64,000 nucleotides of DNA, from NCBI GenBank assembly GCA_965206655.1, contig CBDBKC010000038.1, positions 831,430-895,429 of the forward strand. Direction: 5' to 3'. Both the position numbers and the translations under genes were made by a program. The DNA is from Bryobacterales bacterium (GTDB taxonomy: Bacteria; Acidobacteriota; Terriglobia; Bryobacterales; UBA6623). Below the pieces are notes generated by a model that worked only from the letters and a program-made list of their open reading frames with translations, was not told the DNA's origin and did no database searches. Below are positions 10,585-46,650 of the stretch, in pieces (positions within the stretch are counted from its first letter, which is position 1; the number at the start of each line of letters is the position of its first letter).

Positions 10585-10596
10585 GACTTGTGATCT

Positions 10597-16554: not shown

Positions 16555-16588
16555 AGCACATTCCAGGAGCATCAAGAAAGGTTTTGAA

Positions 16589-31129: not shown

Positions 31130-31202
31130 TCGGATATAGCTCAAATGGATAGAGCATCAGGCCATAACCTGACTGTCACGGGTTCGAATCCCGTTATCCG
31201 CC
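31130..31202 (+). pseudogene. Degenerate tRNA-like gene (canonical D- and T-arms, but 6-nt anticodon loop 'ccauaa' and U1·C72 mismatch); possibly a decayed tRNA-Met/Ile2
   Basis: Manual fold: GCUC-AAAUGGAUA-GAGC D-arm, ACGGG-UUCGAAU-CCCGU T-arm, no CCA; anticodon stem UCAGG/CCUGA closes only 6 nt. Confidence 0.35.
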
Positions 31203-31444
31203 TGACTCGAAATCAGGCTTAACCAAGAGTGAACCGGGCCGCGTTTCGGCCGCCTGTCCTCGCGGTTTGAGGACGGCCGGCAGCGCCGCCTCGGCTCTGT
31301 GCTTCCGTTGAAACTGCCGGCCGTGATGCGGGTGAAGTATGCCCGCGGCTCGTCCGGCTCTAGCTGAAGCCCGCCATAGGCTGCGTGAAGCGCGGTTCGG
31401 GGATCTCAATTCACAGAAAGACTTTGCTACGAGGAGGTGCTGTC

Positions 31445-32557: not shown

Positions 32558-32619
32558 GGCCGGTGAGCAAAGGGGGCCGGCGCGTTTGGCGCCGGCCCCG
32601 GATCGGGAAGCAAGCGCAG

Positions 32620-32722
32620 GCCGTGAAAAAACGGGGACTGTACCAAGCGCCGCCGCGTAACTGCTTTGTTCGCGGCGCTCACAAGCGGCGCGCCGTGGAC
32701 TGTCCCCAGTTTTTTCACAGCG
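32620..32722. repeat. MITE-like palindromic element, copy 2 (inverted orientation)
   Basis: About 90% identical to the reverse complement of copy 1. Confidence 0.7.
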
Positions 32723-32740
32723 CCTCAGGCGGAGTTACGC

Positions 32741-32816
32741 GCAGGGTTGGTGTAAGCGGGCAGCATGGCGGATTCCAAACCCGCCGGTGGAGGTTCGAGG
32801 CCTTCACCCTGTGCCA
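32741..32816 (+). tRNA. tRNA-Trp (anticodon CCA)
   Basis: Manual cloverleaf: acceptor GCAGGGU/ACCCUGU, G73, encoded CCA, T-loop UUCGAGG; anticodon stem has one mismatch. Confidence 0.65.
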
Positions 32817-32859
32817 GAAGTTTGTGGTCTTTGACAACCGAATAGCCGTAAGAATTCGT

Positions 32860-32934
32860 TGCGGGATAGCTGGAGTGGCTCCAGTCCGGTCTCATAAGCC
32901 GGTAAGGGCGGTTCGATTCCGCCTCCCGCAACCA
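32860..32934 (+). tRNA. tRNA-Met (anticodon CAT; elongator or Ile2-type)
   Basis: Acceptor UGCGGGA/UCCCGCA, anticodon loop CUCAUAA, T-arm GGCGG-UUCGAUU-CCGCC, CCA encoded. Confidence 0.75.
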
Positions 32935-32950
32935 TTTTCGGAACAGGAAG

Positions 32951-33050
32951 GTGTGAAGAAATCGGGACTGTCACAAGCGCGGGCCAAAGCACTCGCCGGT
33001 TCGCAAGCGCTGACTGAAGCGCGGTTGACTGTCCCAGCATTTTTTCGCAC
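32951..33050. repeat. MITE-like palindromic element, copy 3 (diverged)
   Basis: gggactgtc … gactgtccc with aaa/ttttt flanks. Confidence 0.55.
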
Positions 33051-33059
33051 CTTCAAAAT

Positions 33060-33134
33060 GCCGGAGTCGTTCAACAGATAGGACCCTGGGCTTCGAACCC
33101 AGTGATGCGGGTGCAACTCCTGTCTCCGGTTCCA
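33060..33134 (+). tRNA. tRNA-Arg (anticodon TCG), non-canonical D/T loops
   Basis: Acceptor GCCGGAG/CUCCGGU, anticodon arm CUGGG-CUUCGAA-CCCAG, D-loop AACAGAUA (no GG), T-loop UGCAACU (G55), CCA encoded. Confidence 0.6.
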
Positions 33135-33138
33135 GTTT

Positions 33139-33218
33139 GGCCGTGTAGCTCCAATTCGGTAGAGCGTCCGGTTGAAGCCCGGAGCCTTGTGCTGGTTCGA
33201 TTCCAGCCGCGGCCACCA
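33139..33218 (+). tRNA. tRNA-Phe (GAA)
   Basis: Anticodon loop UUGAAGC, canonical T-loop UUCGAUU, A73-CCA; slightly long D and variable loops. Confidence 0.75.
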
Positions 33219-33224
33219 GTTTTC

Positions 33225-33299
33225 CGGCAGGTAGCCCAATGGCAAGGCGCCTGACTGTTAATCAGACCGATGGAGGTTCGAGTCCTCCCCTGCCGGCCA
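33225..33299 (+). tRNA. tRNA-Asn (GTT)
   Basis: Anticodon loop CUGUUAA; T-arm GGAGG-UUCGAGU-CCUCC; CCA encoded. Confidence 0.85.
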
Positions 33300-33312
33300 A
33301 GCAAATTGTCGA

Positions 33313-33389
33313 GGACCTGTAGCCAAGTGGAAAGGCGGCCGGCTGCAACCCGGTCTATGCGTTGGGTTCGATTCCCACCGGGTCCTCCA
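33313..33389 (+). tRNA. tRNA-Cys (GCA)
   Basis: Anticodon arm GCCGG-CUGCAAC-CCGGU; U73; CCA encoded. Confidence 0.8.
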
Positions 33390-33409
33390 ACAGATGTAGA
33401 GAAGATCGT

Positions 33410-33484
33410 TCGGAGATGGTGCAACAGGGAGCACGGGTGGCTTTGACCCATCGAATCCTGGTTCGAGTCCAGGTCTCCGATCCA
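33410..33484 (+). tRNA. tRNA-Gln (TTG)
   Basis: Anticodon loop CUUUGAC; T-arm CCUGG-UUCGAGU-CCAGG; CCA encoded. Confidence 0.8.
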
Positions 33485-33500
33485 AAGTTCGAGGAATCGC

Positions 33501-33578
33501 GGACCGTTGGCGCAGTCCGGCAGTCGCGCTCGGTTGTCAGCCGAGAGGTCGTGGGTTCAAATCCCATACGGTCCGCCA
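33501..33578 (+). tRNA. tRNA-Asp (GTC)
   Basis: Anticodon arm CUCGG-UUGUCAG-CCGAG; G73; CCA encoded. Confidence 0.8.
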
Positions 33579-33779
33579 GAGCTTGGGTGACGGGGAGCGT
33601 GGAGGGGGATCCCAGAAATGCTCAGGGGACGTCGCCCAATTCGATCTGGCTTAGGCGGTCTGGCTGCAATCAACAGATCACCGGCATCATCGGCCTTCGG
33701 CCGAGCTTGGAGATCGCGCACAGCGCGACCCGGCACGGCACAGCCGCGCGCCACAAAGCTTGTCGCGTTTCAGAGTTGA

Positions 33780-33854
33780 GCGTCCTTGGTGTCAACGGCA
33801 GCATGAAAGCCTTCCAAGCTTAGGGTGTCGGTTCAAATCCGACAGGACGCTCCA
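33780..33854 (+). tRNA. tRNA-Gly (TCC)
   Basis: Anticodon loop CUUCCAA, U73, T-arm GUCGG-UUCAAAU-CCGAC, CCA encoded. Confidence 0.7.
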
Positions 33855-33855
33855 T

Positions 33856-33933
33856 CAGGGTGTAGCTCAGTTTGGCCAGAGTTCCCGCCTTGGAAGCGGG
33901 ATGGCGTTGGTTCGAATCCAACCACCCTGACCA
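33856..33933 (+). tRNA. tRNA-Pro (TGG)
   Basis: Anticodon arm CCCGC-CUUGGAA-GCGGG; A73; CCA encoded. Confidence 0.85.
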
Positions 33934-33954
33934 CTTTTGTGGATTCCTAATTGT

Positions 33955-34029
33955 GGGTTCGTAGTTCAACAGCAGAACGGGTGACTTTTAATCATCACAA
34001 TGAGGGTGCGAATCCTTCCGAGCCCACCA
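33955..34029 (+). tRNA. tRNA-Lys (TTT), non-canonical D/T loops
   Basis: D-arm GUUC-AACAGCA-GAAC (no GG), anticodon loop CUUUUAA, T-loop UGCGAAU (G55), CCA encoded. Confidence 0.65.
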
Positions 34030-34030
34030 T

Positions 34031-34106
34031 GGGCCTATAGCTCAATTAGCAGAGCGCCTGCCTTGCAAGCAGGAGGTCGCGAGTGCAACTCCCGCCAGGT
34101 CCACCA
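34031..34106 (+). tRNA. tRNA-Ala (TGC), non-canonical D/T loops
   Basis: G3·U70 present, anticodon arm CCUGC-CUUGCAA-GCAGG, variable AGGUC; D-loop AAUUAGCA (no GG), T-loop UGCAACU (G55). Confidence 0.6.
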
Positions 34107-34117
34107 ACTTTGTTTGT

Positions 34118-34193
34118 AGGTCTATAGCTCAACCGGCAGAGCACCCGGTTCTTACCCGGGAGGTTGGGGGTTCGACGCCCTCTGGGCCTACCA
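34118..34193 (+). tRNA. tRNA-Lys (CTT)
   Basis: Anticodon arm CCCGG-UUCUUAC-CCGGG; canonical UUCGACG T-loop; CCA encoded. Confidence 0.75.
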
Positions 34194-34209
34194 AGTTTCT
34201 TGGAGCTTG

Positions 34210-34318
34210 TGCGAGGGCGAAAAACTGGGGACAGTCCACGGCGCGCCGCTTGCGAATGCGGCAAGCAGAGAAGTGACAGGGGCGGCGCTTGGTACAGTCC
34301 CCGTTTTTCGCGGGTTCG
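34210..34318. repeat. MITE-like palindromic element, copy 4
   Basis: …gaaaaactggggacagtcc…ggtacagtccccgttttt…. Confidence 0.7.
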
Positions 34319-34338
34319 ACGCCCGGCCCACAAAGTTC

Positions 34339-34415
34339 GGCCTTGTAGCCCAACCGGCAGAGGCGGCCGTCTCAAAAGCGGCGCAGTGAAGGTTCGAATC
34401 CTTCCAGGGCCACCA
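34339..34415 (+). tRNA. Class-I (short variable loop) tRNA with anticodon CAA (Leu codon UUG); isotype uncertain
   Basis: Anticodon arm GCCGU-CUCAAAA-GCGGC (perfect), 5-nt variable loop, canonical GAAGG-UUCGAAU-CCUUC T-arm, A73-CCA. Confidence 0.5.
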
Positions 34416-34485
34416 AGGTTTTGGCTGTGATGAAGGGGAGCGGTTGACGGCGGGACCGCTCTCTGACGATTACGGCTCGGTTTTT

Positions 34486-34562
34486 GCCTCGCTGATGGAA
34501 TTGGCATACATACCTGTCTTAGAAACAGGGTCTTCCAGGTTCGACTCCTGGGCGAGGTACCA
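34486..34562 (+). tRNA. Class-I (short variable loop) tRNA with anticodon TAG (Leu codon CUA); isotype uncertain
   Basis: Anticodon arm CCUGU-CUUAGAA-ACAGG (perfect), variable GUCUU, T-arm CCAGG-UUCGACU-CCUGG, A73-CCA. Confidence 0.5.
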
Positions 34563-34571
34563 ATTTGAAGT

Positions 34572-34654
34572 GGGTCGTACCGCGTGGCGCGGAAGCGGGC
34601 TGTAACCCCGCGGCTCGACGAGCACCGCTGGTTCGATTCCAGCACGACCCACCA
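34572..34654 (+). tRNA. tRNA-Tyr (GTA), class II
   Basis: Anticodon arm GCGGG-CUGUAAC-CCCGC, long variable arm GGCUCGACGAGCAC, A73-CCA. Confidence 0.7.
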
Positions 34655-34661
34655 CAGTTTC

Positions 34662-34738
34662 GGGCGTGTAGCTCAACGGAGAAGAGCAGGCGGCTTCTAC
34701 CCGCCCGGCTGGGGGTTCGAATCCTCCCACGCTCGCCA
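34662..34738 (+). tRNA. tRNA-Arg (TCT)
   Basis: Anticodon arm GGCGG-CUUCUAC-CCGCC; G73; CCA encoded. Confidence 0.8.
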
Positions 34739-34833
34739 AGAAAAAAGGGGACAGTCCACTTCGCGCCTCTTGGGGGTCCGGAGACGACCGCTGAGCCTTT
34801 AGGTGGCGCTCGGTACAGTCCCCATTCTTCTTG
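34737..34833. repeat. MITE-like palindromic element, copy 5
   Basis: caagaaaaaaggggacagtcc…ggtacagtccccattcttcttg. Confidence 0.65.
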
Positions 34834-34845
34834 AAGCCAAGAGAT

Positions 34846-34920
34846 TCTGGGTTAGCGTAACGGCAGCGCGGGCCGGCTGTGAACCGGTCGGAGTCAGTTC
34901 GAGTCTGACACCCAGTACCA
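34846..34920 (+). tRNA. tRNA-His (GTG)
   Basis: Anticodon loop CUGUGAA; irregular 5' acceptor end (possible -1 nucleotide) as usual for tRNA-His; CCA encoded. Confidence 0.65.
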
Positions 34921-34921
34921 C

Positions 34922-34997
34922 GGGGCAGTAGTCCAAGCGGATAGGATGCAGGGCTTTCAACCCTGCGATGAGAGTTCGATTCTCTCCTGCCCTGCCA
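34922..34997 (+). tRNA. tRNA-Glu (TTC)
   Basis: Anticodon arm CAGGG-CUUUCAA-CCCUG; G73; CCA encoded. Confidence 0.8.
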
Positions 34998-35002
34998 AGT
35001 CC

Positions 35003-35078
35003 GGGAGCGTAGCTCAGTCAGCAGAGCGTACGTCTGATATGCGTGAGGCCGAAGGTGCAATTCCTTCCGCTCCCACCA
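35003..35078 (+). tRNA. tRNA-Ile (GAT), non-canonical D/T loops
   Basis: Anticodon loop CUGAUAU; D-loop AGUCAGCA (no GG); T-loop UGCAAUU (G55); A73-CCA. Confidence 0.65.
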
Positions 35079-35085
35079 AGTCTGT

Positions 35086-35163
35086 TGCGGGTTAACTCAG
35101 CCGGGTCAGAGTGCCTCTCTTACAAAGAGGAAGTCAGGGGTTCGAGTCCCCTACCCGCTACCA
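35086..35163 (+). tRNA. tRNA-Val (TAC)
   Basis: Anticodon arm CCUCU-CUUACAA-AGAGG; U1·U72 mismatch; CCA encoded. Confidence 0.75.
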
Positions 35164-35167
35164 ATTC

Positions 35168-35176
35168 GCCCTCTTA
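35168..35176 (+). pseudogene. 5' acceptor strand plus positions 8-9 (gccctct-ta) of a tRNA-Thr split by IS630 insertion
   Basis: Complementary to the 3' acceptor AGGGGGC at 36330-36336; TA at 35175-35176 is duplicated at 36273-36274. Confidence 0.5.
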
Positions 35177-36272
35177 CTGAGTCCCGCATAATATTCAGTT
35201 AATCGAACGACAAAGAAGATTGCTTCCAAAAGGCGGCGATCAAGCGCCGTTTGCGGCGCATGCGGCGCAAAGTCGTGCGTGCCCGCTCGTCGAGCTCCCA
35301 GTAGTCGTTGGGGCAGACGTTGGGCAACTCGTGCTGCTTCCAGTAGGCCCAGATGTATTCCACCGGATTCAGCTCCGGGGCGTAGCCCGGCAAGTACTCG
35401 GTCTCGATGTGGCCCTGCGACAACGCGATGAACTCGCGCACCAACGCGCTGCGATGCGCCGGCAAGCGATCCCACACGATCAGCAACGGACGTTGTATGT
35501 GGCGCAGCAGCGCCTTGAGGAAATCGATCACCTCGGGACCGCGGATGGCGTCGGGATAGAGACGGAAATAGAAGTTGTGGAAAGTGATTCCGGCCGCCGC
35601 CGAGAGCTTCTTCCAGTTGAAGTTGAACTGCAGTACGGGCGTCTGCCCGCGCGGCGCCCAAGTACGGCAGCGATGTGGCTTCTGGCTCAGTCCGCTTTCG
35701 TCGATGAAGACGATCGTGCGGCCCTGCTTTTGCGCTTTTTTTTAATGGCGGGCCAAGTCTTCTTCTGCCAAGTCTGAATCGCTTCCTCGTTGCGCTCGCG
35801 GGCCTTGCCGACCGGCCGTTGCGGGCTCCAATGCAGCGCCCGCAGTAGCTTCCAGACGTGGCCTTCGTGGTAGCGCACCCCGAAACGGTCGCGGATCAAC
35901 CGCGCCACCCGCGGACAGCTCCACAGCGGTGTCGGGAAGCCGTGCGCTTCGGGTCCTTCGAGCAGCAGCCCTTCCAGCTCGGCGAGCTGCGCGGCGCTCA
36001 GCAACGGCTTGCGGCCGGCGCGACCGGCTTTGGCTAGCCCGGCTCGGCCGTCTTCGCGGTAACGCTGCACCCAGCCGCTGACGCTTTGTTGGGCGGCTTG
36101 GACTCTACGCGCCGCCTCAGCTTGGCTCAGTCCTTTTTCCACGACCAGCCGCACCGCCTCGATGCACCGCTTCTCCAGCGCCGCAAAGTCTCGCTTCACG
36201 CCTTTTGGAAAACCCATATCCAAAAGACGTCGCTCCATTACAAAAGGTTACCCTATATTATGCGGGACTCAG
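35177..36272 (-). mobile_element. IS630-family insertion sequence (1096 bp) with ~22-bp terminal inverted repeats and a TA target-site duplication
   Basis: Left end ctgagtcccgcataatat… versus right end …atattatgcgggactcag; flanking TA/TA. Confidence 0.8.
35199..36238 (-). CDS. IS630-family DDE transposase encoded in two frames joined by a predicted -1 ribosomal frameshift at A_AAA_AAG (35735-35743)
   Basis: N-terminal HTH ORF 35687..36238 ends …WPAIKKKRKS*. The -1 frame continues …KKAQKQGRTIVFIDESGLSQKPH… into ORF 35199..35531 (DDE region …LPGYAPELNPVE…). Confidence 0.75.
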
Positions 36273-36340
36273 TAGTTCAATGGGAGAACCGCTGTCTTGT
36301 AAACAGCCAATGGGGGTTCGATTCCACCCAGGGGGCTCCA
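36273..36340 (+). pseudogene. 3' portion of tRNA-Thr (TGT) (D-arm through CCA) separated from its 5' acceptor strand by the IS630 insertion
   Basis: ta-GUUC-AAUGGGA-GAAC, anticodon arm GCUGU-CUUGUAA-ACAGC, irregular T-stem, …AGGGGGC-U-CCA. Confidence 0.6.
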
Positions 36341-36350
36341 AGTTCGACGC

Positions 36351-36442
36351 GGAAGGATGGCCGAGTCCGGGAAGGCATTGGCCTGCTACGCCAAGGTGGG
36401 GCCGAAAGGCCCTCGGGGGTTCAAATCCTCCTCCTTCCGCCA
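36351..36442 (+). tRNA. tRNA-Ser (GCT), class II
   Basis: Anticodon arm UUGGC-CUGCUAC-GCCAA, long variable arm, G73-CCA. Confidence 0.85.
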
Positions 36443-36464
36443 AGTTTTGAAACAGCAAGTCTCG

Positions 36465-36554
36465 GGAGAGTTGGCCGAGCGGGAAGGCTCCGGTTTTGAA
36501 AACCGGTGACGTGTCGAGACGCACGCGGGGGTTCGATTCCCTCACTCTCCTCCA
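36465..36554 (+). tRNA. tRNA-Ser (TGA), class II
   Basis: Anticodon arm CCGGU-UUUGAAA-ACCGG, long variable arm, CCA encoded. Confidence 0.8.
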
Positions 36555-36628
36555 AACACGACGGAGTGACTTGACTCCTCCAGGCGGGTACCCATTGGCG
36601 TATACTCCAGGCTCGGAGGTCCGCTGGC

Positions 36629-37639
36629 ATGAGCACGTTGGAGCGAAGACAATTTCTGAAGAGGTCCGCCGCCCTCGGGATCGGTCTCTCGATCGTTTCC
36701 TCTGAGGCATTTGGCGCGGGCTCCGACAGGGACGTGAATCAGGGTTTTGCCGCGCTGCGAAAGCGATTGCGCGGCGTCCACAACTTTTTGACGACGCCCT
36801 TCCGGTCTGACTACACGTTGGACACCGAGGGCTTGCGGCAAAATGTAGCTCACCACGCCCGCGGTGACGTCGGCGACATGACGATCGTTGTGGGCGGCGG
36901 GCTCGGTGAGTTGTTCACACTCAATGCGGACGAGCAGAAAGCCATGGCCGAGGCCGCTGTCGCCGGCGCACAAGATAAGCTGCCGGTCGTTGTCGGCGCC
37001 GGAGGCGGTTACGGAGCGGCGCTTCGCATGGCCCGTAACGCAGAGGACGCCGGGGCGGATGCGATTCTTCTGTTTTCGTCCCCCTACGGCAGCGGGGATG
37101 CGGAGGGCGCTTACCGCTACTTCAAAGACATCGCCGACGCTGTGAAGATCGGAGTTATCCTCTACCCCCGCGGGAAGGAAGAGCACTGGGCCGAGACGAT
37201 CCGCCGGCTCACGGAGACGCCCAATATCATCGGGTTCAAGGACGCCAGCGGAGGGATCGCGGTCGGGGAGTCACTAGGCGCGCTTGTCCCCGATAACTTT
37301 CTCTGGATCGCCGAAGGAGAGGAACACGCCGTCAAGGCGTTCCCGGCAGGCGCCAGGGCCTACACGAGCGCTGTCGCCGTTTTCGTTCCGGAACTCTGCC
37401 GGCAATTTTGGGAAGCCGGTGTCACCGGGCGTCTTGATGAGATGAACAGCACTCTTCGCGACAAGATCGACCCCGTCGTCGCCTTGCGTCGGGTGAGAAC
37501 GGGCTACGGAATCAGCGCCATAAAGGTTGGCCTCGAAGCACTGGGGCGCGCGGGCGGACCGGTTCGGCCGCCGGGCACGGTAGTCCTTCCAGAGGACCGA
37601 GAGAAAATAGCTGCAATCGCGCGGCGGTATTCGAAGTAG
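36629..37639 (+). CDS. Tat-exported DHDPS/N-acetylneuraminate-lyase-family (DapA-like) class I aldolase
   Basis: RRQFLKRSAALGIGL Tat motif; GGGLGELFTLNADEQ and IIGFKDASGG (Schiff-base Lys) motifs. Confidence 0.7.
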   Translation: MSTLERRQFLKRSAALGIGLSIVSSEAFGAGSDRDVNQGFAALRKRLRGVHNFLTTPFRSDYTLDTEGLRQNVAHHARGDVGDMTIVVGGGLGELFTLNADEQKAMAEAAVAGAQDKLPVVVGAGGGYGAALRMARNAEDAGADAILLFSSPYGSGDAEGAYRYFKDIADAVKIGVILYPRGKEEHWAETIRRLTETPNIIGFKDASGGIAVGESLGALVPDNFLWIAEGEEHAVKAFPAGARAYTSAVAVFVPELCRQFWEAGVTGRLDEMNSTLRDKIDPVVALRRVRTGYGISAIKVGLEALGRAGGPVRPPGTVVLPEDREKIAAIARRYSK

Positions 37640-37681
37640 ACTCTACGTCCCAGCGCCGAACGAACCCGGGTCCATCGGCTG

Positions 37682-38947
37682 TCAGCGAACGGCTACGACC
37701 GCGACTTGCTCGAACTGATCTTGGATGACCTGGACGGTCGTTCGAGCGGGCGGGTTCCGTGGGAAGTTCCTTTGGAACACTGCGTCCATACGGGCCATGT
37801 CACGCTCAACGTCCTTCAAGTAGACGTGGATCTGAACGACGTGGTCCAGGTCCATGCCGGCGAGTTGGAGGGTGTCACGAATCTTCTCGAGTGAATCCTG
37901 CATCTGTTCTTCCAGTGTTTCACCCCGGCCGGACTTTCCCGATGTCCACAACGTATCGCCGTCGAGCACTCCACCCCCGGAACTTGTGGCGCTGGTTCCC
38001 ATGTACTGGGGGATGACGCGGCCTTTCGTTTGAACTTCGCTTGTAGCGACCAGCGCGAACTGCACCCGACTTTCAGGTCCCGGCAAGCGGGAGATACAGA
38101 AGCTGGCGCGGCTCGGGGCTGTTCCCAATTCAAAGAACGTCTTCCATATGGAGTTGAGCTTGGGGTAGCTTTCTCGCGTCAGAAAGTAGGGATTGGCGAA
38201 GACAACGTGCTCGAAGCTCAAGCCCGCGTCGGCTAAGGTCGAAGCGGCTTTCTCCATGGCGGTCTGGGTCTGCGCCTCGATGGTTTCGGCAAACTTTCCG
38301 GTGTCATCGCGGCCGCCCCGGCCGGCCAGATAGAGTCGGTTTCCCGCCCAGACTGCTTGGCTGAGGGGGTTCTTCGTCACCGGCGCTGAACGATCTCGCG
38401 GTGTCACGACTCGGATCCGAGATCGGTCCGCGTAAGCAATGCAACTGACCTCGATCCCAGCCCCGGCCGGCAGTCCTGGCATCTCAAGCGTCGTGCGCGC
38501 CGGGTAGGAGCCCGCTTCAAAGTAGCCCCCATAGACCTTGTTCATCGTCTGATAGTTGCCCATGTCGGCAAGGTAAACGTGACATGTGACCACGTTGCCA
38601 TAGTCCATTCCGGCTTCGTTTAGAACGTAGCCCATTCTGTCCATAGCCATTCTCACCTGGGCTTCGACCTCGCTTGGTGGGTCGCCCGTTTTGGGATCCA
38701 GATCCGTCTGCCCGGCGATGTAGAGCGTCTCTCCCACCAGCACGCCGGGGCTATAGGGTCCGCCAGGCGGGAACTCACCCGGGTAGACGATTCGGCGCGG
38801 AACTTTATGCGCTGAGGCAATCGGTGTGGACTTGGAGGGACCCTCCCCCTCGCAGGCCCAGGGTAGCAGCGGCAACGACGCGACTACAAACAGCCTTGCG
38901 AGCAGCGTCGATAGGGCCTTCGGGACGTAGCGATACTCTTGGCTCAT
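37682..38947 (-). CDS. Secreted protein made of three tandem RidA/YjgF/L-PSP (Rid-family) domains
   Basis: 421 aa: signal peptide/lipobox-like LPLLPWAC followed by three ~125-aa repeats, each with Rid-like …GETLYIAGQ…/…GNRLYLAGR…/…GDTLWTSGK… and …V.V.VYL.D… elements. Confidence 0.65.
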   Translation of the reverse strand: MSQEYRYVPKALSTLLARLFVVASLPLLPWACEGEGPSKSTPIASAHKVPRRIVYPGEFPPGGPYSPGVLVGETLYIAGQTDLDPKTGDPPSEVEAQVRMAMDRMGYVLNEAGMDYGNVVTCHVYLADMGNYQTMNKVYGGYFEAGSYPARTTLEMPGLPAGAGIEVSCIAYADRSRIRVVTPRDRSAPVTKNPLSQAVWAGNRLYLAGRGGRDDTGKFAETIEAQTQTAMEKAASTLADAGLSFEHVVFANPYFLTRESYPKLNSIWKTFFELGTAPSRASFCISRLPGPESRVQFALVATSEVQTKGRVIPQYMGTSATSSGGGVLDGDTLWTSGKSGRGETLEEQMQDSLEKIRDTLQLAGMDLDHVVQIHVYLKDVERDMARMDAVFQRNFPRNPPARTTVQVIQDQFEQVAVVAVR

Positions 38948-39048
38948 GGTATGTCTCGCATTTTCGAGGCTTCAACGGATGGGATCAAGTTAGATCAGAC
39001 CGCATGGTCGATTGTTCCTAACGACTCCCAGCGAAACGAGCGTGAATG

Positions 39049-40308
39049 CTACCGCTGTAAAGGCGCCGACCGCCCCAGTACTGAATAGACGTCCTCCACC
39101 TGGTGGCCCTTGCAGACAAAGATGCGGTCGAAGCAGTTGACGGTCATGTCGAGGTTCGACATGACGAGTTCGAGCTGATCACCCAGCTTAGGCTCCCGAT
39201 CCGTCTCGTCCCATTCGATGAGGCCGAACTCGGCCCCGGCTGGTCGTACGCGCAGGTCGGGACGGTCCTTGACGATGTCCGTCGGCTGTGTCATCGACTT
39301 CTTGCCGGCGTCGATGGAGGCCTGCTTCGGATAGTGTCTACTGACCACTGTGGTAAGCACGCTGAGAGCCAGCCCGAAGTCTTCAAAGGTCTCGCTGCCG
39401 CTCTTGCTGCCGATGGTCCGGTAGTGCGAATCCATCAGGGCATAGGAACCAGCCTGCAGCTCCGTCAGGCCGTCTAGGTGCAAGCTGTCGATGTCGTAGC
39501 TGCCGGTGCTGCCGCCGGTTACGATGTCGACCGGGATGCCTGCCTTGCGGCACAGGTGCACCGATTCCATGAGCTTGTCGATCTGGGTGTTCGAGACGGC
39601 CCGGCGGTGCTCCCAACCTTTGGCGTGTGACGCCGCGCCGGAATACCCCATCAGGCCGGCCAGCTTGAGGTGCTTGGCCTCCATCGCGCGCTGACTGAGT
39701 TCGAGCCCTTCCTTGCCGGGCGCTACGCCCTGCCGATGATTGACCCCAATGTCGTTGTCGACAACCACGTTGAACGTGACCTTCTCGGTCGCTGCGACTT
39801 TCTCGAGCTGGTCCACAATCGTTGGGTCTTCGACGACGAACATGAAGGTCGGGTCTCTCCGCGTCAGCGCGACAACGCGGCTCAGCTTATTGGGGCCGAC
39901 CGGCTGGCTGGTCCACAGAATACCCGGCGCGCCGGCGTCCATCATCGCCTCGCACTCTGAGATGGTGGCGCAACTGAGCCCGTGCGCCCCAGACTTGATC
40001 TGCAGCATGCCGATCTCGGGGCTCCGATGTACCTTCACGTGTGACCGCAAACCGATACCGGTCTTCACACAATGATCGGCGAGTGTCTTCAGGTTCTTAT
40101 CAAAGACGCCCTTGTCGAGGACGAGATTCGGCGTCGGCAGGTCGTTCTTAGTAAGCCCTGAGAGGTCGTGACGCTTGATTTTCCATTCGAGTTCCGCGTG
40201 CGAGTACGACTTCGTGCGCGCGGCGCTCATCGGCGCCGCAAAGGGACGGGAGCCGGCAAGTGCGCCACCTGCCGCCGCAACGGAAAGAAACAATCTTCGG
40301 GAAAGCAT
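39049..40308 (-). CDS. Tat-exported fold-type III PLP enzyme (alanine-racemase-like N-terminal domain; D-serine dehydratase-like/DSD1/D-threonine-aldolase family)
   Basis: MSLMLSRRLFLSVAAAGG Tat signal; …GIGLRSHVKVHRSPEIG… (PLP-Lys region) then C-terminal beta domain. Confidence 0.6.
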   Translation of the reverse strand: MLSRRLFLSVAAAGGALAGSRPFAAPMSAARTKSYSHAELEWKIKRHDLSGLTKNDLPTPNLVLDKGVFDKNLKTLADHCVKTGIGLRSHVKVHRSPEIGMLQIKSGAHGLSCATISECEAMMDAGAPGILWTSQPVGPNKLSRVVALTRRDPTFMFVVEDPTIVDQLEKVAATEKVTFNVVVDNDIGVNHRQGVAPGKEGLELSQRAMEAKHLKLAGLMGYSGAASHAKGWEHRRAVSNTQIDKLMESVHLCRKAGIPVDIVTGGSTGSYDIDSLHLDGLTELQAGSYALMDSHYRTIGSKSGSETFEDFGLALSVLTTVVSRHYPKQASIDAGKKSMTQPTDIVKDRPDLRVRPAGAEFGLIEWDETDREPKLGDQLELVMSNLDMTVNCFDRIFVCKGHQVEDVYSVLGRSAPLQR

Positions 40309-40587
40309 GAGAGACATCGGAGGGATGACCGGCTTGATTGTAGTGGATCGGCGGGGCGGGCGGCGCCGCAACCGGGCTGCAGTGCCGCGGCAGCTTCCGC
40401 CCCGCGGCGTCCCAGATGCACGACGCCGCACCAAAGCGTAGAAGCACCGCACCGGCGACCTCCCGTGCGCGCCTCGCCACCAAGCCTTTTCGTGACCGTG
40501 GGCGCATGTTGTCTATCGTAGCTTCGTGGGGTCAGCACCCTTCGGTTAGGCTTCCGCGCAATCTATCTTCATGGGCCGGTCTCCCGC

Positions 40588-42768
40588 CTACGGGGAATCC
40601 GCAAGACGGTCCTTTTTCTGCCGGGAAACGACCATAGTAATCGGCGCTGTTGCTGCCCAGCGGCCGTCCACCTCGGCTTCAATGCTGATCTTCGTCGTAC
40701 TCGGTTCCGCTTGCTCCCCAGCCTCAAGCGCCAAAATGATTTGGTCTGACTCCCGGGATATGACCTGATAGCCAATCCCTTTGGGCGCGTTGGCGATGCG
40801 GAGCTTTGCGTGGTGGGGTACTTGTTCCGCAACGATCTTGATTTCCTTCACTTCGCCCTGCTCGAGTCCGATACCTTTTGTTTCGGTCGAAAGCCTGGCA
40901 TCGAAAGGCTCGACGACGTTCATCGCGATACCGGGAATCGGACGGCGAATGTCGTTCCTTTGGCGTGGCGGGCCGATCCAGAGCGACGCGTGTGCCTCGA
41001 CGACGGGGCCGCCGGTTCCGGCGCGGCCTCGAACTTGAAACGGGTATACACCCGCCGTGAGAGACTCTGGTGCTTCGACGCGAAACGTCAACGCGGGGAT
41101 GATGATGTTGTCGCCGTCCGCGGAGGGGCCAAAAAACTGGTCAGCGCGAAACTTGCCGGAGAGCGCTTCTCTCTGGGACGGCAGACCGTCAGCCCAAACC
41201 TCAACCTCGTCTTCGAATCCCGGCTGGCGGATCAAGAACACGGTAAGCTCGGCCACACCGCCGCGCGGAACGGTGAAGTTTTCCGGTTCCACCAGTAGCT
41301 GAAAACCCGGGCGGGCGCTCCTAACCTTTAGTCGGTACTGGAATGTTGGGCCGCCCCGGCCGACCCGGTCACGTACGACGAGCTTCAAGGACCCATTTCG
41401 TTTTGGAATATAGGACAAGCTGCTGTCGGGGTTGCCGATGACCGTCCCTTGTCCCGTCATCACGTCGTCGTGCTCCGCGACGAGTTTGCCTTGGCTGTCG
41501 AAGAGCTCCAGCACGGTGTCGATGTAGGGCAGGCCAAGCTGCGAGGCCAGCGTCAGGATTTGCAATGGCTCGCCCGCAACCCCTTGGATTTCGTAGATGT
41601 CGTCCTCTCCATCGGAGTCCAAAGCGCCGTTGATGATGACCTCGCCTTGCCGCCAGTCCGCGAGCCGGCTATTCGCTTCCGAGAACTCGCGGACGTCGCT
41701 GATCTCGAAGCTGATCCCATCAGCGGCGCCTTGAGGCCCTGTCGCCCAGAGCCGCCAAAGGCCTGTCTCAACCCCTTCGGGGATCTCCAGCCTGGCTTCC
41801 AATCGGTGAGCCGACCGGCTTACGACTTCGGCGTCGATTCTCGGAACGTCCACGGCTCTTGTCGGGTCTGGGCGAAAATCAATCGGGATCGTAAACGGAT
41901 AGGTCATACGGTAGTGTTCCGCTCCCCGAATCCGCGACAGATGTACCGACTGGATGGAATCGAGAGCCGTTCCCACAACCGTGATATGGGCCGTTGAACC
42001 GCGTGCCGCACCCAGAGGGGAAACGGCTTCCATCAGCGGCAACTGGGAAACGCGCAACATGTAGCCGCAGTTCCGGCCGCAGTTAACGTTCTGAGGGCCG
42101 CGATACTGGTCGAGCTGCAGGTAGTAGTCGCCGCTGTCCGCGAAGGTGTGCTCGATGAACGGCGTCTCATCGACGTCGTTGCGGTCATCGTTATACGCGA
42201 CACGGTTCCCTTCGGCATCGAACAAGGTCAGTTCGCACTCGAGGTATGAACCATACTCCATCGAACGGACATCGAAGGTCCAACGCTCGCCCGCTTGTGC
42301 TTTGAAGGCGTAGGTGTCAATGTCCACACGCCCGGCCATGTAGCCGTCAACAATCTGGGGCGCGAGCTCCATCGGCTGGGCTTGATCAAGTCGATCATTG
42401 GGCTCGGCTTCAGCCACGGCTGGGAACTGTGTGACGTTGAACAGCCTGGAGTTCGACGGCCCGTCTTGGGAGAAAAGCTGCAACCGATGTGGTCCCAACG
42501 CGGCTTTTCCGCCTACCTCGACCAGGCCCACGACGTGTCCGGAGTCGGCCTGCTTCGTTTGCACCCAGCGCAAGTCCGTGCTGTCGAAGCGTACGCCGGT
42601 TACATTCGATAGAAACTGTCCGTGCAACTCAACCGTAACGGTCGAGCCCAATCGCGCGCCGAGTGGCAGGACACGATCGATCCAGGGTTGGGGTAGGTCG
42701 GAGCCAGGAAGCTGTGATGCCGCGAGGAGTGCGAGGGCCGCCGTTGTCATCTGGCGCCTCGCCGTCAA
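40588..42768 (-). CDS. Secreted protein with multiple pre-peptidase C-terminal (PPC)-type beta-sandwich domains
   Basis: Signal peptide; …DIDTYAFKAQAGERWTFDVRS… and …DIYEIQGVAGEPLQI… PPC-like motifs. Confidence 0.5.
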   Translation of the reverse strand: MTARRQMTTAALALLAASQLPGSDLPQPWIDRVLPLGARLGSTVTVELHGQFLSNVTGVRFDSTDLRWVQTKQADSGHVVGLVEVGGKAALGPHRLQLFSQDGPSNSRLFNVTQFPAVAEAEPNDRLDQAQPMELAPQIVDGYMAGRVDIDTYAFKAQAGERWTFDVRSMEYGSYLECELTLFDAEGNRVAYNDDRNDVDETPFIEHTFADSGDYYLQLDQYRGPQNVNCGRNCGYMLRVSQLPLMEAVSPLGAARGSTAHITVVGTALDSIQSVHLSRIRGAEHYRMTYPFTIPIDFRPDPTRAVDVPRIDAEVVSRSAHRLEARLEIPEGVETGLWRLWATGPQGAADGISFEISDVREFSEANSRLADWRQGEVIINGALDSDGEDDIYEIQGVAGEPLQILTLASQLGLPYIDTVLELFDSQGKLVAEHDDVMTGQGTVIGNPDSSLSYIPKRNGSLKLVVRDRVGRGGPTFQYRLKVRSARPGFQLLVEPENFTVPRGGVAELTVFLIRQPGFEDEVEVWADGLPSQREALSGKFRADQFFGPSADGDNIIIPALTFRVEAPESLTAGVYPFQVRGRAGTGGPVVEAHASLWIGPPRQRNDIRRPIPGIAMNVVEPFDARLSTETKGIGLEQGEVKEIKIVAEQVPHHAKLRIANAPKGIGYQVISRESDQIILALEAGEQAEPSTTKISIEAEVDGRWAATAPITMVVSRQKKDRLADSP

Positions 42769-44039
42769 ACAAACAGCTCCTTGATAGGTGTACCGTCTTT
42801 GTTGATTCTGACGGGCCGCCCGTTGGCGTGATAGTCCTTCGTGTAGTCGATGCCGAGCTTTTTGAAAATAGTCGCGCCGAGATCTTCCACCGAGATGGGA
42901 CGGTCTTTCGGCTCGGCGGCACGTTCGTCGGAGCTGCCGATGACTTGCCCGCCCGGAGTCCCGGCACCCGCCATGGCCACGGGGAACACGCCCGGCCAGT
43001 GGTCGCGGCCCGCCGAGTAGTTGATCTTGGGCGTTCTGCCAAATTCGCCCATCGCGATGACCAGGGTGGTATCGAGCAGGCCCCGCTGCTTCAGGTCGTC
43101 GAGCAACGCGACGAAGGCTTGGTCGAAAATCGGATACAGCGTTTTGTTGGTCTTCTCGTTGTCGGTATGGGTATCGTAGCCGCCGTGAAACACGGTGACG
43201 AGCCGCACGCCTGACTCGATCAGCCGACGCGCCAGCAGCGCCCCTTGGCCCGCGGTGTTTCGCCCGTAGAGATCGCGCAACGTTGCGGGCTCTTGGCTGA
43301 TATCAAACGCTTTCTTGGCGATGGGCGATGACACCAGATCGATTGCTTTTTGATAGAAGTAGTCCATGCTGTCGATCAGCGGCGACGTCTCGAGCGCTTC
43401 CAACTCGGCATCGAGAGCCCCCAGGAGTCGCGCTCGCCCTTGGGCCTCTTCCAGAGCCACTCCCGTGGGCAGCGTCAGGTCCTTGACCGAAAAATTCTCC
43501 TGGTTTGGGTCGCCCGTGATAAACGGATCGTAGGCCGAGCCAATAAAGCCCGCTTCGGCTGAAATATCCTTGCGCGGAATCACAACAAACGGCGGCATCC
43601 CGTTGCGCGCCCCTTGTTCCTTCGCCACGACCGACCCGTACACAGGGTGTTTCAAGTCATTCCCGGGCTTGCTACCGCTGTAGATATACTGCTTCGCCTT
43701 TTCGTGGATGGCCTGATCGGAGTGAACGGAGCGGATGAGCGTGAATTCGTTCAGCGCCTTGGTACAGCGCGGCAGGAGCTCGCTGAAGTGTATGCCGGGG
43801 ACGGCGGTCGGAATCGTGCCGAAGCTGCCGCGAATCTCAAGAGGCGCGTCCGGCTTCGGATCGAAACCATCAAGCTGGCTCATGCCGCCGCTCTGGAAGA
43901 AGATGATGCACGAGATGTCCTCTCGCCCGTGCGGCGAGCCGAGCAGGGTCGGCAGGTCCAGACCGAACGCCAGCGTGCCAACCCGAAGGAAATCCCTGCG
44001 GCTGAATCCACTTCGGTCAAACCTCGCTGTGCTACTCAC
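42765..44039 (-). CDS. DUF1501-family protein (sulfatase-like), Tat signal
   Basis: SRRDFLRVG Tat motif; …GGMSQLDGFDPKPDAP…DTHTDN… typical of DUF1501. Overlaps the next gene's start. Confidence 0.8.
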   Translation of the reverse strand: MSSTARFDRSGFSRRDFLRVGTLAFGLDLPTLLGSPHGREDISCIIFFQSGGMSQLDGFDPKPDAPLEIRGSFGTIPTAVPGIHFSELLPRCTKALNEFTLIRSVHSDQAIHEKAKQYIYSGSKPGNDLKHPVYGSVVAKEQGARNGMPPFVVIPRKDISAEAGFIGSAYDPFITGDPNQENFSVKDLTLPTGVALEEAQGRARLLGALDAELEALETSPLIDSMDYFYQKAIDLVSSPIAKKAFDISQEPATLRDLYGRNTAGQGALLARRLIESGVRLVTVFHGGYDTHTDNEKTNKTLYPIFDQAFVALLDDLKQRGLLDTTLVIAMGEFGRTPKINYSAGRDHWPGVFPVAMAGAGTPGGQVIGSSDERAAEPKDRPISVEDLGATIFKKLGIDYTKDYHANGRPVRINKDGTPIKELFV

Positions 44040-44052
44040 GACGGGCCTCTCG

Positions 44053-46539
44053 TCATTGGTTTAACTGAAACTCCTTTGAGTTCAGAACAGCCCACAGCAT
44101 GTTCTCCAGGGCGCGACGCCTGGTTCGGCCGGCGTCTTTTTCATCAGCGATGAATTTCGAGATTGAGTCCCACTGGCCGGTGGTCGGCTCCCGTGCGTAC
44201 GCCCGCTCGAAAACTCGGTCGACAATCGCTTGGTCGTCGAGGCCTTGCTCAAGCAAATCCGTCAATATGTTCTCCTCGGCTTCTACCTTGTCACGAATCG
44301 TCTCGCTGTTCATCATGTGGAGCGCCTGGCTCAGCGACGGGCTCTTGTCCCGGGGGGCAAGAATGTCGCGGCGGGGGAAACCGAACACGGTCAGGAAGTA
44401 GTCGGGTCCGTTCGTGGCGACAACGTCCTTGGGTGAGGTTCCTGGCGGGTAATTGCCGAACCTGTGAGGCGCGGCGGTGACTTGCACAATCGAATCGAGC
44501 ATGACCTCCGCCGGCAACTTGCGCGGGACGTAGCGGCCGTACAGCATTTCACCCAGGTTGTCGGCTTCGCCTTTGCGCGAAGGGTCGCGGCTGCTCAACT
44601 GGTAGGTACGGGAACTCAGGATGGTTCGGTGCAGCTCCTTAAAGCGAAATCCGCTCTCGATGAAATACCGCGCCAATTCGTCGAGCAGGTCCGGATGGGT
44701 CGGCATGTTCGTTGAACGGAAGTCATCCGGTGGCTCGACCAGTCCACGACCGAAGTACTCCGACCAGATGCGGTTCACCGTCGCGCGGGCGAATTGAAGC
44801 TGCTGCGTCCGCGTGATCCAGTTGGCCAGAGCCTCGCGGCGGTCGCTTCCCTCTGGGATCGCGGGGGTTGTACCGTCGAGGAATCGCGGCGCTACCGGTT
44901 GTTTCGTCACCGGATGCAACAAGTCGCCGTTACGCTCGCTGTACCATATACGCCGATACTGCCCGTAGCCGTGCTTAACCTTGAGCCGGGCGAAGAAGGC
45001 GGCCATTCCGTAGAAGTCGTCCTGGGTCAGGTTCTCAAGCGGATGGTTGTGACATTCCGCGCAATCGAGCCGAACCCCAAGAAAGAGCCGGGAGACAGTG
45101 GGCGTGATCTTTCGCGGCTCGAAAGTGCGGAGCATGAAATCCATCGCGGGGTGCCAGAAGTTACCCGCCGGGCGGACCGTCGTATCTCCCGTGCTCGTGA
45201 GCATTTGGCGCACGGTCTCGTCGTAGGGCCAGTCCTCTTCAACCATCAGCCGGATCCATTTCTTGAAGCTGGCGTTGGTTCGGCCTTGCGAGTTGTACTG
45301 TGCGTTGCGGAACCAGTCTTCGAACTTGACGAGCCACTGGCTTGCATAGTCCCTGCTTTCGAGCAGGTGGTCGATCAAGCGGCCGCGCTTATCGGCCCTG
45401 GGGTCGTCGAGGAATTCCTCGACCTCGCCGGGTGTAGGTAGCCGTCCGGCGGCATCCAAGAAAACTCGTCGAATGAACATGCGGTCGGAAGCGAGGGGAT
45501 AGGCGGTAATATTGACCTCCCGCAGTTTCTTGAAGACGTGGCGGTCGATGAAGTTGTTCTCGGCTGTGGCTCTGTATTCCAAACCCGAAGAGGAATCGAT
45601 CACGATCATCTGTGAAGTGGCGACCTTGCCGACGGCACGCGCCATGATAGTCGTAAGACCTCGCCCCGCGGCCGTCACGATCCCGGCCAAATCAGGCGAA
45701 GAGACGACCGCCTCGTCGGCGACTGAGTAGCGTACTTCGCCGCTCATGTCGCGGGTGGAGCCGTCAGAAAATCGCCCGATCACAACAAGTGGCTGACGTC
45801 GCTCGCGGCCGATCAAAATCCGCTCGCGGGGGTACATTTCAAGACGCTCCATGCGGGGGCCCTGAGTGTCGAGAGGCGCTCGTTGCTGGAGCCAAGTGTG
45901 CAGAGTGCGGTAGGCGTCCGACTCAGGGGTCATCAACTTGCCGCCGCCATGAGCGAGTTGGAACGAGGGCTTCCGCAGGAGGAGTGAATCTTCCGCCTTG
46001 TCGAAATCCACCCGGCGGCCGTCATCTTCGTACACCACCATCTTGTGATCGGCGGCGACATCGTACCCGAACAGCGAAAGCTTGAAGCCGTTCTGTCCCG
46101 CCGGCGAGCCGTGGCAGGCAGAACCGTTACAGCCCTTGGTTGTCAGGATCGACATCACATCGCGGGAAAAGCTCACCGTCATCTCCTGCGATTGATTCCG
46201 CACTTCTACGGGCATAGATGTCTTCAGACTCCCGAACGAAACCTCAATCGTTGCCCGTCCCGGTGAATGTCCCACGACGATTCCTCCGTCGGGGTCGACG
46301 GTGAGCACCTTTGGGTCTGATGAGAGAAGACGGCACGATCGGCTCACATCCGCTTCGTGCGCTTGGCCGTCACGCGCCGTGACGATGAACTTCTGCGAGG
46401 CCCCGGCCCCCTGGAGAACGATTCCGGGCGGTTCCAACTCAATGGCGGTCCACCCATCGCCCGCGAAAACGGGAACTCCGGCACCGGCCAGAAGGGCGGC
46501 GATGGCCCCCGCAACGTTCCGCAAAGTCCGCCCCCGCAT
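44053..46539 (-). CDS. DUF1549/DUF1553 (PSCyt/PSD) protein with N-terminal Big_2-like domain
   Basis: 828 aa; …TKGCNGSACHG… (PSCyt2 CxxCH-like) and C-terminal DUF1553 region; canonical partner of DUF1501. Confidence 0.8.
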   Translation of the reverse strand: MRGRTLRNVAGAIAALLAGAGVPVFAGDGWTAIELEPPGIVLQGAGASQKFIVTARDGQAHEADVSRSCRLLSSDPKVLTVDPDGGIVVGHSPGRATIEVSFGSLKTSMPVEVRNQSQEMTVSFSRDVMSILTTKGCNGSACHGSPAGQNGFKLSLFGYDVAADHKMVVYEDDGRRVDFDKAEDSLLLRKPSFQLAHGGGKLMTPESDAYRTLHTWLQQRAPLDTQGPRMERLEMYPRERILIGRERRQPLVVIGRFSDGSTRDMSGEVRYSVADEAVVSSPDLAGIVTAAGRGLTTIMARAVGKVATSQMIVIDSSSGLEYRATAENNFIDRHVFKKLREVNITAYPLASDRMFIRRVFLDAAGRLPTPGEVEEFLDDPRADKRGRLIDHLLESRDYASQWLVKFEDWFRNAQYNSQGRTNASFKKWIRLMVEEDWPYDETVRQMLTSTGDTTVRPAGNFWHPAMDFMLRTFEPRKITPTVSRLFLGVRLDCAECHNHPLENLTQDDFYGMAAFFARLKVKHGYGQYRRIWYSERNGDLLHPVTKQPVAPRFLDGTTPAIPEGSDRREALANWITRTQQLQFARATVNRIWSEYFGRGLVEPPDDFRSTNMPTHPDLLDELARYFIESGFRFKELHRTILSSRTYQLSSRDPSRKGEADNLGEMLYGRYVPRKLPAEVMLDSIVQVTAAPHRFGNYPPGTSPKDVVATNGPDYFLTVFGFPRRDILAPRDKSPSLSQALHMMNSETIRDKVEAEENILTDLLEQGLDDQAIVDRVFERAYAREPTTGQWDSISKFIADEKDAGRTRRRALENMLWAVLNSKEFQLNQ

Positions 46540-46650
46540 ACTCGCCAGAATACACCACGCAAACCATTAGCAGGGCCGGGAAACAGCGGGGAGGGTAGCG
46601 AATGCTTGCCCGAGGGCGAAAACCGAGGCCCAATCCCTCTCTTGGCGCCC

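Follow-up and report, generated by a model that had tools for sequence, protein, structure and literature searches.

Do some bacteria control imines and enamines outside the cytoplasm, and if so, which enzymes would release them there? The literature examined here places bacterial RidA in the cytoplasm, shielding pyridoxal 5'-phosphate (PLP) enzymes from 2-aminoacrylate and related enamines. The question is raised by three neighbouring genes, here called A, B and C, in a 64,000-nucleotide stretch of DNA (the window; G+C ~60% throughout) from a member of the order Bryobacterales (Acidobacteriota). Their products, a relative of dihydrodipicolinate synthase (DHDPS), a chain of three RidA domains and a fold-type-III PLP enzyme, all bear predicted export signals, and the original prediction had read them as one deamination pathway of the periplasm. 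Our own reading, to which we give a probability of about one half, is that B is an exported RidA pseudo-trimer which hydrolyses enamines and imines coming from PLP lyases exported through twin-arginine translocation (Tat), chiefly DgaE-like enzymes and possibly C, while A acts independently. It is likely that the periplasmic PLP/RidA partnership as such is real, with a main PLP partner other than the one first proposed. The three genes are arranged as follows.

36629-37639, forward strand: gene A, 336 aa, DHDPS-family (KdgD-like) class I Schiff-base enzyme with a predicted Tat signal
37682-38947, reverse strand: gene B, 421 aa, predicted exported 3x-RidA protein, a single-chain pseudo-trimer of three RidA domains
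39049-40317, reverse strand: gene C, 422 aa, fold-type-III PLP enzyme, D-threonine-aldolase/BhcC-like, with a predicted Tat signal

The open reading frames (ORFs) of all three genes were recovered at the coordinates of the original prediction. Gene C may start at the ATG at 40317 (MSLMLSRRLFL, 422 aa) or at the originally chosen ATG at 40308 (MLSRRLFL, 419 aa); a longer ORF with a GTG start, reaching to 40452, was discarded, as it finds no support among homologues, which begin M(L)SRR. Genes A and B run towards each other, their stop codons 42 bp apart, and C lies upstream of B on the same strand across a gap of 101 bp.

A PLP family beside the triple-RidA genes

The evidence that carries our reading comes from the neighbourhoods of B's relatives. 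We clustered every ORF lying up to 6 kb from any of 60 triple-RidA genes. The most widespread neighbour family, found at 16 loci by clustering and at 20 by tblastn, has two homologues encoded in the window itself (14940-16103 and 16385-18142). Its members are DgaE/selA_rel fold-type-I PLP ammonia-lyase homologues, whose best match in the PDB is D-glucosaminate-6-P ammonia lyase (DGL; 7lc0, E 1.6e-33). Twenty matches lie within 2.1 kb of a triple-RidA gene, 16 of them within 350 bp, and only one of 21 falls beyond the first 2-kb bin of the flank, with none beyond 4 kb (binomial p ~7e-12 for 230 kb of flank against ~726 kb scanned). The 20 loci belong to 20 different species-level genomes of Bryobacterales, other Terriglobia and Vicinamibacteria, and the lyase-like gene may be divergent from the triple-RidA gene, upstream of it on the same strand or downstream of it on the same strand. 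The original idea of an extracytoplasmic PLP/RidA association finds strong independent backing in this, an exported-looking PLP lyase homologue standing beside 20 of the 60 triple-RidA loci; the main partner, however, is this DgaE-like family, which had not been flagged.

The alignment of these neighbours and of the two window proteins with DGL covers its entire fold, and the SGxK PLP-lysine motif is retained (SGGK in the neighbours). A twin-arginine motif is present in 20 of the 21 neighbours. Unlike DGL, these proteins carry a predicted twin-arginine signal and, in most cases, a C-terminal extension of ~100 aa, and they lack the His162-His163 pair of DGL; the single exception is a second, more distant copy in locus L022, where one His is kept. 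In DGL, His163 protonates the aminoacrylate and leads to imine release, and the H163A variant releases the reactive enamine (PMC9529869). The missing pair, read from an alignment that is gapped at this loop, therefore makes a RidA partner mechanistically sensible. The cytoplasmic sugar-phosphate substrate of DGL cannot apply to the DgaE-like proteins if they are periplasmic. Both the window pair and the RidA-adjacent proteins score 109-156 bits, with TIGR01437 at 120-156, against cut-offs of 385 (TIGR01437) and 600, and on this measure they are homologues of the same fold and not orthologues of DgaE. The window pair, a candidate class of partners for B, consists of the following.

14940-16103, forward strand: DgaE-family homologue 1, 387 aa, N-terminus LSRRDVFRGSSVAAAGLLAG; TIGR01437 122.6 bits; ~22 kb from B
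16589-18142, forward strand: DgaE-family homologue 2, 517 aa from MKSHLSRRRW; TIGR01437 154 bits, NF047797 147 bits

The first is 46-51% identical to genes flanking triple-RidA genes in other species and the second 46-49% identical, over its full length, to RidA-adjacent genes; the start codon of the second, at 16589, lies within an ORF spanning 16385-18142, and this protein is again without the His-His pair. Gene C can be connected with the same set of genes. In locus L050 a DgaE-like gene, a C homologue and a decayed triple-RidA gene follow one another in this order on one strand, and on metagenome contig L098 a C-like gene precedes a DgaE-like gene by 42 bp, and these orders tie C into the DgaE-like/triple-RidA network.

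In the mechanism that we propose, Tat-exported beta-eliminating ammonia-lyase homologues of the DgaE family would release their products in the periplasm as enamines or imines, with the enamine form being released by enzymes of this kind, and the exported single-chain B would act as the hydrolase of both. Gene C, directly upstream of B, may provide a second client in this lineage, and A, transcribed on its own, would be a KdgD-like Schiff-base enzyme exported by Tat and no more than loosely linked to B and C. Substrates would be beta-hydroxy-alpha-amino acids or amino-sugar acids such as D-glucosaminate. To our knowledge few periplasmic PLP enzymes have been described. If the mechanism is true, some abundant soil bacteria deaminate substrates ahead of uptake, imine and enamine control is needed outside the cytoplasm, and the damage-control paradigm of RidA extends to an extracytoplasmic compartment; it would also offer a first approach to the function of 3x-RidA proteins, of the Tat-signal DgaE-like family and of the Tat-signal D-threonine-aldolase-like and KdgD-like families, all of them uncharacterised. 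A parallel comes from Chlamydomonas, where, as far as the account in a citing paper goes, a periplasmic complex joins an L-amino-acid oxidase with the RidA-type protein M-beta, so that an extracytoplasmic RidA accompanies an imine-producing enzyme and ammonium is released (PMC5053998). That complex, likened here by description, is eukaryotic, has a flavoenzyme as partner and contains a single-domain RidA.

A number of observations weigh against this proposal. In the window B has no adjoining DgaE-like gene, the nearest being ~20 kb off, and the two DgaE-like proteins there are paralogues (46-49% identical) of the RidA-adjacent ones with no clear orthologues among them. Within B's own clade (71-100% identity) the adjacency occurs in L050 only. 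Among the 80 metagenome loci closest to the window DgaE-like copy, many of them on short contigs, one has a triple-RidA gene nearby and six a single-domain RidA gene. The association is one-sided, most DgaE-like members having no adjoining Rid gene, and the exported-looking DgaE/SelA-like PLP family is very large in soil metagenomes, with at least 600 pattern matches. The full canonical set of RidA residues is found in domain 1 of B only, and the gaps around the His-His loop were mentioned above. A scan of positions 36400-40800 gave no promoter-like sites, and terminator-like sites were at the number expected from shuffled sequence, with none in the intergenic gaps.

Predicted export and family relations of A, B and C

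Export was judged from the conservation of N-terminal motifs across homologues. By this standard the predicted signals of A, B and C are a conserved trait of each family and not one-off matches, which agrees with the original claim that all three proteins carry export signals; the trio and the DgaE-like proteins would accordingly reach the periplasm if these N-termini act as they appear to. The signals and the domains of B are placed as follows.

36629-36718, forward strand: predicted twin-arginine signal peptide of A, aa 1-30, ERRQFLK plus hydrophobic region
38852-38947, reverse strand: predicted signal peptide of B, to Cys32 (LPLLPWAC), Sec or lipoprotein type
38420-38812, reverse strand: RidA domain 1 of B, aa 46-176, with the canonical set complete (Y65, N136, R151, E166)
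38030-38419, reverse strand: RidA domain 2 of B, aa 177-306, with R280 and N265 kept, Tyr replaced by Leu195 and Glu by Gln296
37685-38029, reverse strand: RidA domain 3 of B, aa 307-421, with R402 kept, the Tyr loop deleted, Asn replaced by Asp388 and Glu by Gln414
40219-40317, reverse strand: predicted twin-arginine signal peptide of C, beginning SRRLFLSVAAAGGALAG

The N-terminus of A (MSTLERRQFLKRSAALGIGLSIVSSEAFGA) shows ERRQFLK followed by SAALGIGLSIVSS, in agreement with the Tat motif, and scores 16.8 against the TAT_signal model TIGR01409 of NCBIfam (cut-off 16.7). In the A family 103 of 120 homologues share an RR-x-hydrophobic motif, which mostly falls at residues 5-8, and in a distant subfamily (P0339-P0360) the RR motif is present and the hydrophobic region is weak. 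The Tat motif is likewise seen in C, as SRRLFLS followed by VAAAGGALAG, and recurs at residues 2-8 in 95 of 120 C homologues, most of the others being truncated gene calls; between the signal peptide and the catalytic domain the C family has a conserved extension of ~25 aa (YSHAELEAKVxRRDFxGLTK). In B the lipobox L-P-W-A-C32 is non-canonical at positions -3 and -2 when compared with [LVI][ASTVI][GAS]C. Its Cys32 is kept in the closest homologues (P0002-P0005, LPLLPWAC), nearly all full-length homologues have a variable hydrophobic N-terminal segment ahead of the conserved (K/R)xIYP that starts domain 1, and a distant triple-RidA clade has canonical lipoboxes such as LLISGC; B is probably lipid-anchored. 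In the wider family, 79 of 101 representatives of triple-domain length (at most 50% identity to each other; ~78%) have a signal-like N-terminus. The catalytic domains of the trio proteins start only past residue 45-60. Signal-like N-termini are not specific to the trio, as they occur in roughly one third of the window genes and in all eight consecutive genes of the run listed here.

36629-49889: A, B, C, a 726-aa DVUA0089-family protein, DUF1501, PSCyt2/PSD1, a beta-propeller protein and a BNR-like protein

The RidA assignment of B is clear. It scores 207.9 bits against PF01042 (cut-off 27.3) in three stretches and 186.3 against TIGR00004 (cut-off 106.25), and domain 1 shares 33% identity with E. 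coli RidA and 36-38% with mammalian UK114. The residues of each domain were read off by alignment to E. coli RidA (Y17, N88, R105, E120): R151, R280 and R402 all align to R105 and are invariant over 28 diverse homologues, and the domain 1 residues Y65, N136, R151 and E166 are invariant in alignment A1. Like RidA, TdcF and UK114, B is of the YjgF fold with the essential Arg in all three domains. In contrast to these homotrimers it is one chain of three diverged domains with an N-terminal export or lipoprotein signal, and its domains 2 and 3 are without equivalents of Tyr17 and Glu120. The structure modelling that had been suggested for the locus was run for B, and the predicted model is a trimer-like barrel as in the RidA trimer. 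Its best structural match is a chorismatase (PDB 5a3k). We rejected B as a chorismatase: the identity is 15%, there is no match at the sequence level and all three domains are clearly RidA by sequence, whereas chorismatases of the FkbO/Hyg5/XanB2 type are cytoplasmic and have a single active site for chorismate hydrolysis.

The fusion of three RidA domains had been called unusual, which does not hold. Niehaus et al. (2015) named this architecture 3x-RidA and presumed it to be a covalently linked trimer, with EF_0115 as example (PMC4433059); B matches it in having three tandem RidA domains in one polypeptide, the comparison with EF_0115 being by description only. That paper gives no function, export or gene neighbourhood for 3x-RidA (PMC4433059), and within the literature searched the term appears in no other paper. 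The family itself is large, with 336 matches at E<=1e-10 and, at E<=1e-30, over 100 clusters of 50% identity, the majority bearing signal peptides. It is also strongly conserved, mean column identity over 28 diverse members being 74%.

The original family calls for A, B and C were right at the superfamily level (PF00701, PF01042, and PF01168 with PF14031), and two of them can now be narrowed. Gene A had been described as DapA/NAL-like. It does belong to the DHDPS superfamily (PF00701, 146 bits), but its closest relative is KdgD (5-dehydro-4-deoxyglucarate dehydratase), with scores of 209 against NF002958 (cut-off 278) and 190 against TIGR03249 (cut-off 374), compared with 105.8 against dapA (cut-off 206) and 41 and 54 against nanA (cut-offs 382 and 281), so that no equivalog cut-off is reached. 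The best PDB match is KdgD 4ur7 (E 5e-33), and in A the GFKD lysine aligns with the Schiff-base K166 of KdgD and the ILYPR tyrosine with its Y140. Unlike KdgD, A stays under both KdgD cut-offs, bears a predicted Tat signal and reads GGLGE where KdgD has GGTGE (Thr to Leu), which departs from the KdgD motif.

Gene C had been called D-serine-dehydratase-like, and here the fold-type-III family stands (PF01168 Ala_racemase_N, 59 bits; PF14031 D-ser_dehydrat, 50 bits) while the closest relatives are aldolases of D-threonine and 3-hydroxy-D-aspartate. A profile of the C family finds BhcC (6qkb, 1.5e-77) and D-threonine aldolases as best PDB matches, and the D-Ser and D-threo-3-hydroxyaspartate dehydratases only at 1e-35 to 1e-39. 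Against the NCBIfam BhcC equivalog C scores 210.3, below the cut-off of 690. It shares with D-threonine aldolase (4v15, 7dib) and BhcC the two-domain fold and the PLP lysine, Lys95 being invariant in the family and aligning to K59 of D-threonine aldolase. It differs from them in its predicted Tat signal and conserved N-terminal extension and in its metal site, Asn388/Asp390 (SNLD) in place of the His/Asp of the aldolases; Asn replaces the metal-binding His of D-threonine aldolase throughout the Tat-signal C family, with the Asn at least 90% conserved and the Asp invariant. The dehydratases use His and Cys at this site. By sequence C stands nearer to retro-aldol enzymes, from which no enamine is released, than to dehydratases. 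A literature search for Tat-exported D-threonine aldolases found none.

A precedent for pairing such an enzyme with RidA is OngC/OngD, in which a cytoplasmic fold-type-III deaminase, OngC, works with a RidA protein, OngD, without which there is no growth on GlcNAc1A (oxidised chitin) (PMC9537276). OngC is related to D-Ser dehydratases and D-Thr aldolases and is encoded beside the RidA protein, as C is beside B; the comparison of C with OngC is by description only. In that paper both Ong proteins are described as probably cytoplasmic; OngD has a single RidA domain (127 aa), and the cluster contains kinase, deacetylase, transporter and regulator genes (PMC9537276), which the trio locus is without.

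Conservation of the trio and the rival explanations

Gene context was compared through look-ups and through a scan of one genome per species; exact-sequence context look-ups of P0001 and P0129 gave no match. The A-B adjacency is limited to the host species, in which a contig of a metagenome-assembled genome (L013; 99.7% DNA identity over 3.3 kb) has B and A arranged alike. In L010, the closest relative (89% DNA identity), the order is PSCyt2/PSD1, DUF1501, a 716-aa gene and B, with no C at the syntenic site, and A stands 4.9 kb from B, beyond two sucrose-synthase-type genes (a sucrose-synthase/sucrose-phosphate-synthase pair). Seen against L010, gene C is additional sequence that parts B from the 726-aa gene (window 38963-40623). 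The upstream genes PSCyt2/PSD1, DUF1501 and 726-aa were considered as conserved partners and set aside; they are kept in L010 only, and weaker co-occurrences fit the high copy number of their families.

Relatives that are ~85% identical have B in unrelated contexts. The C-B adjacency is found in three related Bryobacterales genomes (the host species, L050 and L071), with 84-88% DNA identity across the junction. In L050 B is frameshifted and truncated (10001-11207) and in L071 it is left as two fragments (9999-10448), C being intact in both and another intact B copy being present elsewhere in each. These two decayed copies are the only triple-RidA genes found elsewhere with a C homologue directly upstream. 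Among the 60 loci with a full-length triple-RidA gene there is no close (>50% identical) homologue of A or C; weak A-like DHDPS matches (29-36%) occur in 8 of the 60 and a weak C-like match in one (L017). Homologues of C are solitary in L011, L012 and L091 and those of A in L090 and L092, and in one genome the A, B and C families lie 0.07-0.85 Mb apart. In L011 (8963-10711) an insertion sequence (IS) with a DDE transposase cuts the C homologue in two. Since A is convergent with B it is not in B's operon. The trio is a lineage-specific juxtaposition within a run of genes for exported-looking proteins and no fixed three-step operon.

This result bears most directly on the original scheme, a dedicated periplasmic pathway in which C deaminates a D-amino or amino-sugar acid, B hydrolyses the enamine or imine and A cleaves or dehydrates the 2-keto-3-deoxy acid. 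The predicted export of all three proteins is what the scheme would expect, as is the OngC/OngD pairing of a fold-type-III deaminase with RidA, but the nearest characterised relatives of C are retro-aldolases and its metal site is unlike those of aldolases and dehydratases alike. Genes C and B share a strand, the 101 bp that separate them hold no terminator-like site, and their adjacency returns in L050 and L071; these recurrences nevertheless reflect shared ancestry, and it is B that has decayed there while C is intact. Against a place for A stand its convergence with B, the 4.9 kb of unrelated genes between the two in L010 and the lack of an A gene near B in every other relative, and C and A homologues stand alone or far apart in several genomes. 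At seven loci of a distant clade a DHDPS-family gene does lie 1.3-9.5 kb from the triple-RidA gene, and in L042 one lies no more than 2.6 kb away, yet the DHDPS genes near the distant clade are without a signal peptide. We consider the three-step pathway, as drawn, quite improbable. In a broader version, beta-hydroxy amino acids or amino-sugar acids would undergo PLP-dependent beta-elimination or deamination in the periplasm of Acidobacteria, and probably of other soil phyla, through holo-enzymes exported by Tat, namely DgaE-like enzymes and in this lineage C as well; an exported triple-RidA protein would act as quencher, and at this locus B and C would form a unit, with A possibly working on the keto acid. 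This is a tentative idea that we are inclined to doubt.

The three genes could also encode unrelated exported enzymes brought together by chance in a genome with many secreted proteins, B having a role outside PLP chemistry as a binding protein, a stress chaperone or another hydrolase of the YjgF fold. Such juxtaposition is easy to imagine in a run of eight consecutive genes, and a window of which roughly one third of the genes, with signal-like N-termini, and B's closest relatives each stand in a different context; the commonest arrangement of one subclade is a tandem pair with a TonB-type protein and a sigma factor and no PLP gene. The chorismatase match shows that a YjgF-type fold can host other chemistry, and domains 2 and 3 of B have lost the canonical Tyr and Glu; on the other hand the carboxylate-binding Arg is invariant in all three domains and domain 1 is a typical RidA. 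What speaks for our reading over this one is also the adjacency of Tat-signal DgaE-like genes in 20 species and in several gene orders, far beyond chance, and we regard coincidence as rather unlikely. Least probable of all, in our view, is that the N-terminal signals are non-functional and that the proteins are ordinary cytoplasmic RidA, DHDPS-family and PLP enzymes. The weak hydrophobic region of the distant A subfamily and the PWAC lipobox of B would suit this explanation, but motif and hydrophobic region are kept in four independent families while the surrounding sequence varies freely, the catalytic domains start late in the chain, and DUF1501 and PSCyt2/PSD1, encoded close by, are proteins of a typically exported kind.

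Additional family contexts and surroundings of the locus

Two further contexts recur among relatives of B. In one subclade, tandem triple-RidA paralogues (~50% identical) often stand beside a CarboxypepD_reg/TonB-type outer-membrane barrel and a sigma factor of the extracytoplasmic function type, and this context fits a role in nutrient acquisition. In a distant clade of predicted lipoproteins, nine clustered loci have a deoxyhypusine-synthase-like gene (PF01916) directly behind the triple-RidA gene, and most loci of this clade have the KdgD-like DHDPS gene without signal peptide 1.3-9.5 kb away, a context which weakly supports a link between Rid proteins and DHDPS enzymes. In L062, an annotated member, a further DHDPS-like gene is close by as well, and annotated genes for BNR, sulfatase and single-domain RidA proteins occur in this locus only. 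The loci are the following.

L001 4698-7154; L017-L019, L021, L023, L029, L035, L046, L054, L055: tandem triple-RidA pairs
L056 10034-12355; L058, L059, L061-L063, L065-L067: distant lipoprotein clade, triple-RidA gene with PF01916 gene

On the side of gene A the locus borders on an array of 24 tRNA genes for ~20 amino acids (31130-36554, forward strand), which stops 75 bp upstream of A and adjoins A in L010 as well; the anticodon of the first tRNA call was not determined. An IS630-like element (35177-36272, reverse strand) sits inside the array between tRNA-Val and tRNA-Ser and has no counterpart in L010. Its transposase is split over separate ORFs, with a helix-turn-helix part at 35687-36238 and a DDE_3 part at 35199-35531. 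Farther off, at 21626-23737 on the reverse strand, lie two adjoining ORFs of 394 and 308 aa whose N-termini, judged by eye only, resemble a transposase and a tyrosine recombinase.

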